A DNA stretch of 64,000 bases from Escherichia phage RB16: the sequence record NC_014467.1; one strand, 5' to 3'. Below, piece after piece: positions 19,825-41,695 of this stretch (positions are counted from its first letter, which is position 1; each line of letters starts with the position of its first letter). The notes beneath the pieces were generated by a model. It saw nothing but the letters and a program-made list of their open reading frames with translations, ran no database searches and was not told the DNA's origin. Both the position numbers and the translations under genes were made by a program.

Positions 19825-19827
19825 ATA
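19820..19827 (+). promoter_or_regulatory. Late-promoter motif TATAAATA overlapping the gp21 start
   Basis: Exact TATAAATA whose last base is the A of the gp21 ATG; the function of a promoter in this position is uncertain. Confidence 0.35.
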
Positions 19828-20474
19828 TGAATGAATCCCAACTCAATGAAAACGGCGATATGCTGCTAATCGAGGAATGGGGTTTACCTTGTGCGGATAT
19901 TTCCGATTCGATTTTAGAATCGGTCGGTGCGTCTAAAGACGGTAAACTTCGGATTGAAGGTATTTTCCTACAGGCTGAAAAAGTAAACCATAATAAACGA
20001 CTGTACCCGAAAAAAGTATTAGAAGAAGCAGTAAATGATTATATCAGAACTCAAGTTAATACCCGTCAAGCACTGGGTGAAATGAATCACCCTCCGCGCC
20101 CGAATGTGGACCCGCGAAATGCTTGCATCCTCATTGAAAAAATGTGGTGGAAAGGTAATGACGTTTGGGGCCGTGCGGTTGTTGTCGAAGGTGACAACGC
20201 GGATGGTGATAAACTTGCGGCGTTAATTCGTGCTGGTTGGGTTCCTGGTGTTTCTTCTCGCGGACTAGGTAAACTTGCCGATTCCGGTAAAGGTTACGGT
20301 ATCGTACAAGAAGGGTTTAAATTGGCTGTAGGTGTTGATGTAGTTTGGGGGCCAAGCGCTCCAGATGCTTACGTTAAACCAATAACCGAATCTCAGCAGA
20401 CGAAACCGCTTGTTGAGAATATTAGTGCTGATGACGCTTTCAGAAAATTATCTGAACGTTTGAAAGGTCTATAA
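19827..20474 (+). CDS. gp21: Prohead core scaffold protease gp21
   Basis: 215 aa; matches T4 gp21 as recalled (LYPKKVLEEAV.DYI, ALGEMNHPPR.NVDP, WWKGNDV.GRA, AAL.IRAGW.PGVSSRGLG, EGFKL.VGVD.VWGPSAPDA). Confidence 0.9.
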   Translation: MNESQLNENGDMLLIEEWGLPCADISDSILESVGASKDGKLRIEGIFLQAEKVNHNKRLYPKKVLEEAVNDYIRTQVNTRQALGEMNHPPRPNVDPRNACILIEKMWWKGNDVWGRAVVVEGDNADGDKLAALIRAGWVPGVSSRGLGKLADSGKGYGIVQEGFKLAVGVDVVWGPSAPDAYVKPITESQQTKPLVENISADDAFRKLSERLKGL

Positions 20475-21317: not shown

Positions 21318-22892
21318 ATGTCTAAGAAAAACGAATTGATGGAAAAATGGAACGATCTTCTGGAATCTCAGGAAGGTTTACCGGATATCGCTACCAAATC
21401 CAAAAAACAACTGGTCGCTGCCATTCTGGAAGCACAGGAAAAAGACGCTGAAACCGATCCGGTTTATCGCGACGAAAAAATTGTGGAATCCTTCGGTGGT
21501 TTCCTGGCAGAAGCAGAAATTGCTGGCGATCATAACTATGACCCGACCAACATCGCTTCTGGTAAATCCAGCGGTGCTATCACCAACATCGGTCCTGCTG
21601 TAATCGGTATGGTTCGCCGTGCGATCCCTAACCTGATTGCGTTCGACATTTGCGGTGTTCAGCCTATGACTGGTCCTACTGGTCAGGTGTTCGCTCTCCG
21701 TGCTGTCTACGGTAAAGATCCTCTGGCTGGCGGTACTCCGGCAGATGTTCGTGAAGCATTCCATCCGATGTTTGCCCCGGATACCATGTATTCTGGTGAA
21801 GGTGCTCACACTGCATTCTCGAAAATCACCACTGGTACAGCGATCGCTACTGGCGCTATCGTATACCACATTTTCCAGGAAACTGGTATTGCATACTTCC
21901 AGAACGTTACCTCTGGCAACGTAACTGTAACTGGTGCTGATCCGGCTGCTCTGGATGCTGCTGTAATCGCAGAGAACGAAAAAGGTACTCTGGCTGAAAT
22001 CTCTGTTGGTATGGCTACCAGTGTAGCAGAACTGCAAGAGAACTTCAACGGTTCCAGCTCTAACCCGTGGAACGAAATGGCTTTCCGTATCGACAAACAG
22101 GTTATCGAAGCCCGTAGCCGTCAACTGAAAGCACAGTATTCTGTTGAACTGGCACAGGATCTTCGCGCTGTTCACGGTATGGACGCTGACGCAGAACTGT
22201 CTGCAATTCTGGCAACTGAAATCATGCTGGAAATCAACCGCGAAATCGTTGATCTGATCAACTATACCGCTCAGGTTGGTAAATCTGGTTTCACCCAGAC
22301 CGTAGGCTCTAAAGCTGGCTCCTTCGACTTCCAAGATCCGGTAGATATTCGCGGCGCTCGTTGGGCTGGTGAAAGCTACAAGGCTCTGCTGATTCAGATC
22401 GACAAAGAAGCGAACGAAATCGCACGTCAAACAGGCCGTGGTGCTGGTAACTTCATCATCGCTTCCCGTAACGTGGTTTCCGCTCTGGCTCGTATCGACA
22501 GCGGCATCACTCCGGCAAGTCAAGGTCTCCAGAAGACTCTGAACGTTGATACCACGAAAGCAGTATTCGCTGGTGTTCTGGGTGGCACTTACAAAGTGTA
22601 CATCGACCAGTACGCTCGCCAGGATTACTTCACCGTTGGCTTCAAGGGCGACAACGAAATGGATGCTGGTATCTACTACGCGCCATACGTTGCACTGACC
22701 CCGCTGCGTGGTTCTGATCCGAAGAACTTCCAGCCAGTAATGGGCTTCAAAACTCGTTACGGTATCGGTATCAACCCGTTTGCGAACTCTCGCTCTCAGG
22801 CTCCGGCAGATCGTATCACCTCTGGTATGATCAGCAAAGAAATGTGCGGTAAAAACGCATACTTCCGTAAGGTCTGGGTTAAGGGACTTTGA
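21318..22892 (+). CDS. gp23: Major capsid protein gp23
   Basis: 524 aa; near-collinear identity to T4 gp23 as recalled (GPAVIGMVRRAIPNLIAFDICGVQPM, QVFALRAVYGKDP, DKQVIEA.SRQLKAQYS.ELAQDLRAVHGMDADAELS, YYAPYVALTPLRGSDPKNFQPVMGFKTRYGIGINPFA). Confidence 0.97.
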   Translation: MSKKNELMEKWNDLLESQEGLPDIATKSKKQLVAAILEAQEKDAETDPVYRDEKIVESFGGFLAEAEIAGDHNYDPTNIASGKSSGAITNIGPAVIGMVRRAIPNLIAFDICGVQPMTGPTGQVFALRAVYGKDPLAGGTPADVREAFHPMFAPDTMYSGEGAHTAFSKITTGTAIATGAIVYHIFQETGIAYFQNVTSGNVTVTGADPAALDAAVIAENEKGTLAEISVGMATSVAELQENFNGSSSNPWNEMAFRIDKQVIEARSRQLKAQYSVELAQDLRAVHGMDADAELSAILATEIMLEINREIVDLINYTAQVGKSGFTQTVGSKAGSFDFQDPVDIRGARWAGESYKALLIQIDKEANEIARQTGRGAGNFIIASRNVVSALARIDSGITPASQGLQKTLNVDTTKAVFAGVLGGTYKVYIDQYARQDYFTVGFKGDNEMDAGIYYAPYVALTPLRGSDPKNFQPVMGFKTRYGIGINPFANSRSQAPADRITSGMISKEMCGKNAYFRKVWVKGL

Positions 22893-29091: not shown

Positions 29092-29661
29092 ATGAACAAA
29101 TTAAACCATGAATGTCTGAAAGATTTGTCAGATGGTAAAGAAATCGAGAACGTTATATTCCTCGATATTGACGGCGTGTTAAATAATATGCGCTCTATGA
29201 AATTCGGTGAACATATGGACATCGAATGTGCGCGACATCTACGCCGGATCGTCAACCATGCAAATTGTGATATCGTTGTTTCTTCAACGTGGCGCATGGG
29301 GAACACGACACACACCCTACGCGAAATCCTGTACCCCTGGGGATTGTATCGCGTTATAGGCCGAACCTGTAGCAACATGGTTGGTAATCGTGTGCGTGGT
29401 GATGAAATAAAGGCGTGGATCGATACGTTCGGATGTAAGAACTATATGATCCTTGATGATGATTGTGATATGTTGCCAGAACAAAAAGATCACTTCGTCA
29501 GAACAGATCCTGAAATCGGGCTTACCGAAGAACAATCAACCTTTGCGATCCGCAATATATTTGGAGTAACAACCCCGTTTTGTCCTGAATGCAACGGCTA
29601 CGGGCGCGTGAACCAATACGATAAATGCGGTAGCTGTAACGGTAAAATATTGCGTCTATAA
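29092..29661 (+). CDS. HAD-superfamily phosphatase-like protein with C-terminal zinc ribbon
   Basis: Motif I FLDIDGVL, motif II VVSSTWR, motif III K...ILDDD; C-terminal CPECNGYGR...CGSCNGK. Confidence 0.55.
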   Translation: MNKLNHECLKDLSDGKEIENVIFLDIDGVLNNMRSMKFGEHMDIECARHLRRIVNHANCDIVVSSTWRMGNTTHTLREILYPWGLYRVIGRTCSNMVGNRVRGDEIKAWIDTFGCKNYMILDDDCDMLPEQKDHFVRTDPEIGLTEEQSTFAIRNIFGVTTPFCPECNGYGRVNQYDKCGSCNGKILRL

Positions 29662-29688: not shown

Positions 29689-30192
29689 ATGGCTACTGAA
29701 AAATGGACTACGGTTCACCCTATCCCGTGGCGTAACACCAGCTTTACCTATCTTCCGTGGTGGATCTATGATATCATTGTTGCTGCTAATACGGCAGGTG
29801 GAGATTGGCGTGATTACGCAGAAGAAAAATATGCGAAAGAATTCGACACGCTGAAACAAGCATATATCGACTATACCGATGTTGATTTCATCGAATCTCG
29901 CAACGGCTACCTGTACAAACTCAGTGATTTTACTCCGGCTGATCCGGTTGTTACTATCACCCCGAAAACTGCCCCTGCTGATTTTAAAGTAGGCGATCCT
30001 GACCTTGCTGCAACCGATCTGTTTACTATCGATCCGAGCGGTACGGCTATGACTCTGACTGTGGATTCCTCTGGTCATGCGTCGATCGTTGGCGGTAAAC
30101 TCCACGCTGTAAGCGCTGGTGATGTTGTTGTAACTGCGACCTCCGGTTCTGTTACTGCAAACCTGACTGTAAATGTTAAAGTTGCTCCATAA
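29689..30192 (+). CDS. Late-expressed protein with C-terminal bacterial Ig-like (Big_2-type) domain; candidate virion decoration protein
   Basis: 167 aa; N-terminal PWWIYD motif; C-terminal TVDSSGHASIVGGKLHAVSAGDVVVTATSGSVTANLTVNV resembles Big_2; late promoter upstream. Confidence 0.45.
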   Translation: MATEKWTTVHPIPWRNTSFTYLPWWIYDIIVAANTAGGDWRDYAEEKYAKEFDTLKQAYIDYTDVDFIESRNGYLYKLSDFTPADPVVTITPKTAPADFKVGDPDLAATDLFTIDPSGTAMTLTVDSSGHASIVGGKLHAVSAGDVVVTATSGSVTANLTVNVKVAP

Positions 30193-30207: not shown

Positions 30208-30708
30208 ATGCTTCTATTCGAATTCAATGATGTATTCTCGAAGTTTAGTGATGCAATTCAGGCAAAATTCGGCAAACGTCCCGAAAACATGACAGAAACA
30301 GAATACAATACTGCTGTTTCGTCCCTGGTTCGTACAGATTTCTATGAAAAGCTGGCGATCGAGGTTTTGGGCTGGGATATGATGAAATGGGGTATGACTT
30401 ATCGCGATCGCGAAGTCGGTTTTATTCTCGTCAACGAGGTTAAAAGCCCGTTGTGGGTGAATAACCAAAAAATTGCATACATGGATAAAGTGTGTGCGGA
30501 AATGGGTATTGTACGTCTGGATTTCTGGATGTGTAAAGATCTGAATGAACTGAAAGGCCATGCTTATCGATGCCCTCTGATTTCTCGCAACGAGAAACAT
30601 CGTCAAGCATGGGATAGCGCTGGCAAGTATCGCAGTGTATATCTGAATGATGACATGAACATCACTATCCAGGATGTGAACCGCGCCTTTGCGGATTACA
30701 CACCATAA
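30208..30708 (+). CDS. Hypothetical protein
   Basis: 166 aa ORF; ends at a bidirectional terminator. Confidence 0.4.
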   Translation: MLLFEFNDVFSKFSDAIQAKFGKRPENMTETEYNTAVSSLVRTDFYEKLAIEVLGWDMMKWGMTYRDREVGFILVNEVKSPLWVNNQKIAYMDKVCAEMGIVRLDFWMCKDLNELKGHAYRCPLISRNEKHRQAWDSAGKYRSVYLNDDMNITIQDVNRAFADYTP

Positions 30709-30713
30709 ACAAA

Positions 30714-30742
30714 AAAGGGAACCGCAATGGTTCCCTTTCTTT
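30714..30742. terminator. Bidirectional hairpin terminator between convergent genes
   Basis: aagggaaccgcaatggttccctt flanked by A-run and T-run. Confidence 0.6.
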
Positions 30743-31205
30743 TTACAGCTTTCTAACTTCTTTCAACGCTTCTTCTTTGCTACCAACGAAGAGGATCGCT
30801 TTTCCTCCCGCTTTCCTGAAAGGTAATACTGCTTTCGCTCTGTCATCGAACAGTACACCCTGACTTGCATAGGCTGCTTTTTCGCCGCTGCTTTTGGTGT
30901 AGTGGAATTCAGGCAGATACCCAAACAGTTTAACAAGCGCTTTACGTTTTTGTTCTGCAACTTTTTCGGAATTGTATTTACCGACACTGGTCAAGATCGC
31001 AACCTCGCCTAATGTTCTCATATGACAGAACAGCGCAACACCCTCTTCAATCGGTTTTAAATTTTCGTAGAAGTCGGTTTTAGATATTGCCTCTTTTGCC
31101 TTTTTGAGTTCATCCTCTGGCATTCTTGCCGGATCACCATACATCGGTATGAAAGAACCTTCCCAATCGAACAGTACACCATCCATATCAAAGAAAAAAT
31201 TTCAT
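30743..31205 (-). CDS. HAD-superfamily phosphatase (5'(3')-nucleotidase / polynucleotide-phosphatase-like); 5' end shows a one-nucleotide frame offset
   Basis: Track ORF 30743..31186 begins MDGVLFDWEG and therefore lacks the nucleophile Asp of the DxDG motif. An ATG at 31205 with a GAGGA SD sits in the +1 frame and reads MKFFL-stop across a T6 run; removing one T gives MKFFFDMDGVL. Confidence 0.55.
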
Positions 31206-31254
31206 ATCAATTCCTCGCTTTGTGTGTGCATCATATTCATATATGTTCTCATTG

Positions 31255-32088
31255 TCAACCCCATGTGTCTGTTTTAGGTGCGTATGCTGCAACTTTAGCC
31301 ACTAATTCCTTATCAAGCTGATCGATAGATTTCTGTGCTTTGCCTTTTGCCTTAACTTTGATGTAGTTAGACTTGACAACGAACATACCGCCTTTGTCAG
31401 ATTTCTTGATTTCGCTATCGATACCAACTTTGTTAAAGCTGATCCAGATATCACCATCCATGTATTGTTTCAGTGAATCACCCATGTTCAGGATCTTAGC
31501 CATAGTAAGCGCTGCTCCTTCGTGGGTATCCATAAGGATCTCTTTAGGAACCACACGGTCACGTTTCAGGTTCTGCTGCATAGCAATATGAACATCGTTC
31601 ATTACCCAAACGATATGGATGTTTTCTTTATGATATCCCAGCGTTTCAACGTCACGGGCAATGCTTGCCAGCTTGCTCATGCTTTTTAGGGTAACGTCGA
31701 AAATCAGGTTTGGTTTGCGGTCTTCTGGTGCTGCTGCAATACCAGCATAAACACGCGCCTGGTTTTTGTTGGATACGTTGAAAACGTCTGCGATCACATG
31801 ATGCAGGGTTGCCACGTTATCCGGGTTTTTCAAGTTCATGGTTTTAACATCATGACCAGTTTTAGCTTTGATTTCTGCCGCCAGTTTGGTGCTACCCATT
31901 ACCAGCTTTTTCAGTGCGTCAACGTCCAGTGTGATTCCTTCGATACCTAACAGTTTTTCGAGGGTAAAACCTTTACCGGAACCCGCACCGCCAGCCAGGA
32001 TCACAACCTGACCAAATTTAGGATATGCCTTGCCGCCAAACGTAATCAACGCTTCGTCAAGGGATACAAAGTCTTTGAATGATTTCAT
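31255..32088 (-). CDS. P-loop kinase with NMP-kinase-like Walker A; putative nucleotide/polynucleotide kinase
   Basis: 277 aa; LAGGAGSGKGF resembles the adenylate/UMP-CMP kinase P-loop GxPGxGKG; immediately upstream, on the same strand, of the HAD phosphatase. Confidence 0.45.
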   Translation of the reverse strand: MKSFKDFVSLDEALITFGGKAYPKFGQVVILAGGAGSGKGFTLEKLLGIEGITLDVDALKKLVMGSTKLAAEIKAKTGHDVKTMNLKNPDNVATLHHVIADVFNVSNKNQARVYAGIAAAPEDRKPNLIFDVTLKSMSKLASIARDVETLGYHKENIHIVWVMNDVHIAMQQNLKRDRVVPKEILMDTHEGAALTMAKILNMGDSLKQYMDGDIWISFNKVGIDSEIKKSDKGGMFVVKSNYIKVKAKGKAQKSIDQLDKELVAKVAAYAPKTDTWG

Positions 32089-40582: not shown

Positions 40583-40615
40583 TAAATATCTTTACTTATT
40601 ATTGAGGGGATAATT

Positions 40616-41695
40616 ATGCAAGATTACGGACACTGGAAAACTCTAAAGGATGTTGACATTAGTAATTACTTGGGATTTGTCTACGTAATTACATTTGAAA
40701 ATGGTAAAAAATACGTGGGGGCTAAAAAGATATGGAAACGTATAAAAGTTCCTCCATCTTCGTTTAAGCGCGGCCCCCGAAAGGGTTTTGAAGAATCGGA
40801 CTGGAAAACGTATACATCATCATCGAAAGAAGTTAATGATATGATTTCCAGTGGAATACAACCTAAAGATTATTTGATTGTTGGTTGGTATGATTCATGG
40901 GGTAAAACTTTGTTAGCAGAGGCTGAAATGCAATTCTCTAACGATGTTCTCCGAAATCCTGAATGGTTGAACAAGCAAATCGGTGGTCATTTTAATCCTA
41001 ACTGTTTTGATGATTTGACTTATGAAGACATCGAAAGGTACATGCATTTCGATAAAGGGAATGAACACACATCGTGGCCCGTAATGTATCGAGTTGGTAG
41101 TAAAACGAAATATGTTAACCCTGATGAAGTAGAATCACATTTACAGCAAGGTTGGCAGTTCGGAAGAAGTAGATTAGAAAAGTTGTCTGTTGTCTGTGTT
41201 GTTAGCAAATATAAACTTTATAATACAAAAACTGATGAAGTTGTTGAAGTTGTTAATCAAAATGAATTTGCGCGACAGCATAATATAGAATCGGGACACT
41301 TGACAAATTTGTTGAAAGGTTCTACTGATAGTGTGGGTGATTGGACATTATTGCCAGAAGTCAGAAGAAAGAACTATGTCATCGAAGATGATAAAGGTAA
41401 TAAATTCTCGTCTGTGTCTGAATGTGAAAGAGCTAATGGATTGAAACGAGGTGCTGCTACTTCTCTATGTAAAAAAGGGATCTATAAGAAAATGGTTCCT
41501 GAATCCAGGACTCTTTATAAGAAACGGTTATCAACTATTAACTATGTTGAATCTTGTCGTGTTGAATCTGTTTCTAAGATAACAGAAAACAGTTTTCGTG
41601 GTCTTGTTCCAGATCTTGCTGTATTGCATGATTCGAAAGAATCTGTTATTCTGTGGCTTGAACAATACATATCCTATCTAAAGGCAATGAAATGA
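40616..41695 (+). CDS. GIY-YIG homing endonuclease (seg-like) inserted between nrdC and nrdD
   Basis: 359 aa; N-terminal GFVYVITFENGKKYVGAKK (GIY-YIG); long C-terminal region consistent with DNA-binding modules; ATGA overlap with nrdD. Confidence 0.7.
   Translation: MQDYGHWKTLKDVDISNYLGFVYVITFENGKKYVGAKKIWKRIKVPPSSFKRGPRKGFEESDWKTYTSSSKEVNDMISSGIQPKDYLIVGWYDSWGKTLLAEAEMQFSNDVLRNPEWLNKQIGGHFNPNCFDDLTYEDIERYMHFDKGNEHTSWPVMYRVGSKTKYVNPDEVESHLQQGWQFGRSRLEKLSVVCVVSKYKLYNTKTDEVVEVVNQNEFARQHNIESGHLTNLLKGSTDSVGDWTLLPEVRRKNYVIEDDKGNKFSSVSECERANGLKRGAATSLCKKGIYKKMVPESRTLYKKRLSTINYVESCRVESVSKITENSFRGLVPDLAVLHDSKESVILWLEQYISYLKAMK

Follow-up and report, generated by a model that had tools for sequence, protein, structure and literature searches.

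In HAD phosphatases the first aspartate of motif I serves as the phospho-accepting nucleophile. The HAD 5'(3')-deoxyribonucleotidases of the NT5C family, among them the human enzymes mdN (1MH9) and cdN (2I7D) and a bacterial representative (3BWV), share motifs I-IV with a family of phage proteins that are shorter, at about 153 aa as against 180-208 aa in the NT5C-family enzymes. A second point of reference is the +1 frameshift site of prfB, the gene for RF2, which reads CUU UGA C. Both bear on a gene of Escherichia phage RB16 that lies on the minus strand of the 64,000-nucleotide stretch of record NC_014467.1 analyzed here (hereafter the window), in which a run of six T residues (T6) puts the apparent start codon out of frame with the phosphatase sequence behind it. 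We propose that this T6 probably reflects a homopolymer miscount by one base in the RB16 record as deposited.

The phosphatase family and the 5' end of its RB16 member

Comparison of the family profile with the PDB recovers solved NT5C enzymes, namely 3bwv (2.9e-11), 4mum (3.9e-11) and 1mh9 (1.2e-10), in a range that includes 2i7d and extends to 2e-7, and the alignment to these enzymes begins at the DMDGVL motif. Eighteen of the 29 family members match Pfam NT5C at E<=0.001 (best 2e-11); the RB16 protein by itself reaches 18.3 bits (E = 0.0022) against PF06941, short of the gathering cut-off of 24.8, and the assignment to an NT5C-like family therefore follows from the profile result and not from the single-sequence Pfam score. 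In a 29-sequence alignment no variation is seen at D6, D8, G9, V10, K86, K109, D120 and D121, and almost none at S73; S73 lies in the signature ILTS and D120/D121 in LFDDR, and HAD motifs II (Ser/Thr), III (Lys) and IV (DD) are all present. Motif I (hhhDxDx[TV]) is seen in the reading repaired to five T residues (T5) as FFFD6-M-D8-G-V, and is incomplete in the deposited ORF, which starts at M7. Given that the first aspartate of this motif is the nucleophile, a product starting at M7 should be inactive. On these grounds the gene product is a predicted NT5C-like HAD 5'(3')-deoxyribonucleotidase, both activity and substrate being predicted from sequence. Among 51 homologs, ranging down to ~30% identity, 49 carry D-[ML]-D-G-V close behind the N-terminus, preceded by a short leader of 1-6 residues in 46 proteins and of 10-21 residues in P0031, P0044 and P0045; of the remaining two, P0042 is a fragment of 89 aa and P0048, at 261 aa, is extended further at its N-terminus. 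In this set the deposited RB16 product alone starts at MDGVL.

Direct reading of the minus strand gives, in order, GAGGA (31216-31212), ATTGAT, ATG (31205-31203), AAA, the T6 run (31199-31194), CTT (31193-31191) and TGA (31190-31188), then a single T and ATG (31186-31184) GAT GGT GTA CTG. The GAGGA is a Shine-Dalgarno element 6 nt before the ATG at 31205 and occupies the same position as the annotated ribosome-binding site of phage Miller. From this ATG runs a mini-ORF (31188-31205; ATG AAA TTT TTT CTT TGA) of five sense codons, MKFFL*, which is a product of the extra T. The HAD frame, offset by +1 from this mini-ORF, is open from 31201 onward (AAT TTT TTC TTT GAT ATG), with no start codon in the stretch AAT TTT TTC TTT GAT between the upstream stop TGA (31204-31202) and the ATG at 31186, and the same direct reading finds no Shine-Dalgarno sequence ahead of the latter. 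The ORF as deposited (30743-31186; ADJ55530.1 / YP_003858526.1) accordingly encodes 147 aa beginning MDGVL, without the nucleophile aspartate; it is annotated as a "5'-3' deoxyribonucleotidase", and protein look-up places its exact sequence on a single contig. With a T5 run the phosphatase would extend over 30743-31205 and comprise 153 aa, matching the 462-nt coding sequence of phages KKP_3664, RB43 and Miller, and removal of one T yields MKFFFDMDGVL, the exact N-terminus of every close relative. The CTT TGA followed by T (31188-31193) is likewise a by-product of the insertion, having no in-frame counterpart in the T5 relatives (...TTC TTT GAT...).

The earlier note on this DNA had described much of this, and it holds up well. 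Its account of a Shine-Dalgarno-preceded ATG at 31205 that is offset from the HAD frame and meets a stop after five codons agrees in every detail with the minus strand; its statement that the ATG at 31186 has no such element and would yield a product lacking the nucleophile is borne out by the sequence and by the 147-aa ORF; its reconstruction of MKFFFDMDGVL by dropping one T gives the N-terminus of the close relatives; and its HAD assignment is supported by the conservation of motifs I-IV and by the match of the family profile to solved 5'(3')-deoxyribonucleotidases.

Genes around the phosphatase

Upstream of the phosphatase, and co-oriented with it, lies a gene for a 277-aa zeta-toxin-like P-loop kinase (31255-32088, minus strand; PF06414, 30.7 bits, above the cut-off), and kinase and phosphatase remain adjacent in all relatives fetched. 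A sigma-70-type promoter-like sequence, TTGACA-17 nt-TATGAT, at 31230-31258 on the minus strand matches 11 of 12 consensus positions and overlaps the stop codon of the kinase gene; the match is one to the consensus only, of which shuffled sequences give 1.5 sites per region, and it is possible that it represents an early promoter of the phosphatase gene. Downstream, a bidirectional intrinsic-terminator-like hairpin with a T-run (30711-30741, given for the minus strand) is common to the phosphatase and to a convergent gene, and a terminator is annotated in Miller at the corresponding position. The convergent gene (30208-30708, plus strand; 166 aa, ADJ55529.1) also carries the annotation "5'-3' deoxyribonucleotidase". 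It has no Pfam match and resembles the HAD gene in register over the first ~50 residues only (P25...TDFYExL), and at the position of motif I it has E5-F6-N7-D8 against F5-D6-M7-D8 in the HAD gene, without the nucleophile aspartate. It is nevertheless conserved, in a 58-member cluster; its annotation is questionable, and the gene may represent a pseudo-enzyme or a degenerate paralog. A third HAD-like gene within 2.2 kb (29092-29661, plus strand) encodes a 189-aa protein matching PF18143 HAD_SAK_2 (E = 2e-29) with the motif FLDIDGVLN, to which a C-terminal DnaJ-type CxxCxGxG zinc-finger-like segment is fused (E = 9e-5, below the cut-off).

Farther along, RB16 lacks endonuclease VII (Endo VII, gp49), and the alternative nuclease RB16ORF270c has been proposed in its place (PMC2993671). 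Consistent with this, the GuL6 Endo VII protein finds no match in the RB16 window: the gene is missing from the ~1.1-kb interval between nrdC and nrdD (window ~40590-41690) and is present in GuL6, RB43 and all metagenomic relatives.

Length of the T run in related phages and the records of RB43

A 621-base query across the gene has matches in 173 phage records, and in each of the ten closest (96.6-99.8% identity) the 621 query bases align to 620 record bases. The nearest relative, KKP_3664, is identical to RB16 at all 620 other positions, the sole difference being one base in 621, and the two proteins are 100% identical once that of RB16 is repaired. The alignment gap falls inside the run at 31194-31199, and KKP_3664, RB43 and Miller have T5 there in an otherwise virtually identical 110-base context; all three are annotated with a 462-nt, 153-aa ORF from the ATG behind GAGGA, and it is at the ATG corresponding to 31205 that the 153-aa phosphatase of the relatives truly begins. 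Overall, T5 is found in 19 locus entries, representing more than 14 independent contigs, and T6 solely in RB16's own record. The related-locus search of IMG/VR yielded 5 loci, and the broader survey drew on the phage collection as well as the protein database. When IMG/VR was scanned with a pattern accepting either T5 or T6, four contigs were returned, three with T5 and one with T6; the latter (IMGVR_UViG_648936715_000001) agrees with the window at 100% across 13,016 bases and is RB16's own record. The same either-length pattern found no match to either allele in a JGI metagenome scan, which therefore favors neither length, and a 101-base query across the site found no 100% match to the T6 sequence among 174 related phage records. 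Further contigs with the intact protein, taken from ENA, Logan and NCBI assemblies, all have T5; a flanking identity to the window of 84-97% and the presence of Endo VII indicate that they belong to phages other than RB16. Thus none of the contigs carrying the intact protein is a second RB16 assembly, all of them having the Endo VII that RB16 lacks; the RB16-specific neighbor protein P0058 occurs on one contig only.

The intact protein, used as a tblastn query, matches 216 phage records, in 215 of which at least 80% of the protein is covered in one place. Rows sampled across the ranking were single-piece alignments in 60 of 60 cases, 57 of which start at residue 1 or 2, and no broken allele of the phosphatase was seen among more than 170 related genomes. 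The comparison with related phage genomes that the earlier note had named as a check thus returned T5 in all independent relatives, and confined the offset to one deposited record. Of the three alternatives listed in that note, a homopolymer error and a recent inactivating indel both survive this result, and programmed frameshifting or slippage does not, the independent relatives all having T5 with an uninterrupted ORF.

The phage RB43 provides a measure of how often such differences arise in a record. When RB43 was re-sequenced with Illumina, the new sequence and the published one were reported to show 107 or more nucleotide differences genome-wide (PMC3486835, Perrody et al. 2012). Our comparison of 113000-162999 of the old record (NC_007023) with 112300-162299 of the new one (HE858210, RB43-GVA) revealed 16 indels in 50 kb, all of a single base. 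Set against GuL6, nine genes of the old record are interrupted or too short, in seven cases through a clear frame switch; nrdG and homologs of GuL6_244-246, 255, 257 and 258 are among them. The Illumina record has every one of the nine intact, and RefSeq NC_007023 still has the split ORFs. The old RB43 record and that of RB16 are probably products of a single T4-like genome project, as judged from PMC2993671.

Some further irregularities were noticed in these records. Two clusters of three compensating indels lie in NC_007023 inside gp18 and the NAMPT gene. The Hoc-like gene is a single 504-nt ORF in Illumina RB43, Miller, GuL6 and RB16 (window 29689-30192), and is represented in NC_007023 by two short ORFs (hoc, 30353-30856); there is no indel between the two RB43 records at this gene, so the cause of the split would be a substitution. 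The prohead protease gp21, one 215-aa ORF in RB16 (window 19827-20474) and other relatives, is split in GuL6 into GuL6_221 and GuL6_222 (90 + 130 aa; 21607-22331 of the GuL6 locus), probably through a frameshift or error confined to GuL6 and comparable in kind to the RB16 T6.

Origin of the extra base

What the comparison shows is an extra base found in a single record, inside a homopolymer, with nothing else over the 621 bases separating RB16 from its closest relative. Such a change, with no other divergence and in a gene under purifying selection, has the character of an artifact. A record error is favored because the gene is intact in more than 170 relatives and strongly constrained (215 of 216 records; D6, D8, G9 and V10 invariant), because the comparison with KKP_3664 gives no sign of decay, and because the base rate of single-base indels is high in the sister RB43 record. 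We infer that the base originated in sequencing or assembly rather than in the phage stock. Under this explanation the real RB16 would carry T5 like its relatives and would make an ordinary 153-aa NT5C-like deoxyribonucleotidase, translated from the ATG at 31205 behind GAGGA without any recoding, in which Asp6 would act as the nucleophile and Asp8 as the general acid/base of motif I.

The main competitor of this explanation is that the extra T is a genuine and recent insertion private to RB16, which arose by replication slippage in T5 and inactivated the phosphatase. We regard this as the less likely but still a serious candidate. Homopolymer slippage is the commonest natural source of frameshift mutations, the phosphatase is probably dispensable in laboratory culture, and two other HAD-like genes within 2 kb could make its loss tolerable. 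The depositors, moreover, annotated the truncated ORF uncorrected. Among the ~65 genes shared with GuL6 in the RB16 window no other is frame-broken, so that the window shows none of the additional frame breaks that would be a sign of poor assembly and the record appears to be much better finished than the old RB43 record; the short alignment of gp68 concerns its low-complexity C-terminus only, its ORF being intact at 135 aa. Another unusual RB16 allele, the rki-058w fusion caused by a stop-codon substitution, has also proved real, having been verified by western blot (PMC3486835). Against a real insertion stand the absence of a broken allele from all of the more than 170 related genomes, the lack of any secondary mutation in the phosphatase gene and the richness of the sister RB43 record in single-base indel errors, points that are still compatible with a very recent mutation in the laboratory stock. 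The description of the genome, in which RB16 is HM134276 with 176,789 bp (PMC2993671, Petrov et al. 2010), does not state the sequencing method. We note in passing that the IMG/VR and protein-collection record has 176,788 bp, one base apart from that figure. On balance we favor the record error over the real private insertion, considering the former probable, the latter possible, and all other explanations together quite unlikely.

Were T6 real, initiation at 31205 would produce MKFFL and terminate at the UGA at 31190-31188, and partial re-initiation at the AUG at 31186, one base on (UGA-U-AUG), might give the 147-aa protein, which would lack the first beta-strand as well as the nucleophile and hence be catalytically dead. 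An N-terminal peptide MKFFFDMDGVLFDWEGSFIPMYGDPAR or MKFFLDMDGVL would then signify rescue by frameshifting, and (M)DGVLFDWEGSFIPMYGDPAR re-initiation. A real insertion would show merely that RB16 can dispense with the phosphatase in laboratory culture. Phase variation was considered and rejected, T5/T6 being too short and the second allele being absent from all population samples.

The deposited 147-aa form could alternatively be the functional product of a gene that truly starts at the ATG at 31186, which is in frame, as the annotation has it and as the earlier note had allowed. This is the least credible of the explanations weighed here. There is no Shine-Dalgarno sequence ahead of that ATG, no homolog starts there, and the upstream residues, including the invariant Asp6, are present in every homolog compared except the 89-aa fragment; in the solved NT5C enzymes, furthermore, the profile alignment starts at DMDGVL.

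It might also be supposed that a programmed +1 frameshift, at CUU UGA U or UUU UUU C, or transcriptional slippage on T6 regulates synthesis of the phosphatase. The sequence CUU UGA U (31193-31187) does match the prfB site at 6 of 7 bases and combines a shift-prone P-site codon with a stop; a +1 slip at CUU would lead to MKFFLDMDGVL, and movement of tRNA-Phe from UUU to UUC to the wild-type MKFFFDMDGVL, with the catalytic motif kept in both. The two-frame architecture is conserved in no relative, however, whereas real programmed shifts are conserved, and the CUU UGA motif owes its very existence to the inserted base. The only Shine-Dalgarno-like element (GAGGA, 31216-31212) lies 18 nt upstream of CUU, with AUUGAUAUGAAAUUUUUU in between, rather than at ~3 nt, and folding around the site reveals no downstream RNA structure above that of shuffled sequences (z = 0.34). 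Efficient slippage by RNA polymerase is known from A/T runs of, typically, about 8-9 or more, and T6, which is T5 elsewhere, is shorter than these. Given the lack of conservation, of a correctly placed stimulator, of a long T-run and of RNA structure, we reject programmed recoding, which the comparative data effectively refute and which we consider highly improbable as judged from sequence comparison. Equally improbable, in our estimate, is that T6 is real and that CUU UGA U or UUU UUU C allows a low-level spontaneous +1 shift, by which a little active phosphatase would be made; this would be a natural case of a frameshift mutation whose leakiness stems from recreating, five codons into the gene, a prfB-like shift site, and T6, if real, would show slight leakiness at most.

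Two practical points follow from the favored record error. YP_003858526.1 (147 aa) probably mis-annotates a conserved 153-aa enzyme as a truncated protein without its catalytic aspartate, and this sequence has spread to RefSeq and UniRef. More generally, a prfB-like CUU UGA can arise trivially from a one-base insertion and is not to be taken for recoding without comparative support.

Compared with the described systems, the RB16 T6 shares with prfB a P-site CUU, an in-frame UGA and a +1 frame that runs into a functional protein. Unlike in prfB, the next base is U and not C, there is no Shine-Dalgarno-like stimulator 3 nt upstream, and the site, located 5 codons from the start, has no counterpart in any homolog and was created by the very base in question. 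In the case of RB43 (NC_007023/AY967407 against HE858210) the question is resolved by another, independently determined sequence of that phage, of which RB16 has no equivalent in the collections searched; single-base events also differ in number, with one in 64 kb in RB16 versus 16 in 50 kb in RB43. The two nevertheless agree in the nature of the event, each presenting a change of one base in a short run that is confined to a single record and breaks a gene kept intact by all relatives.
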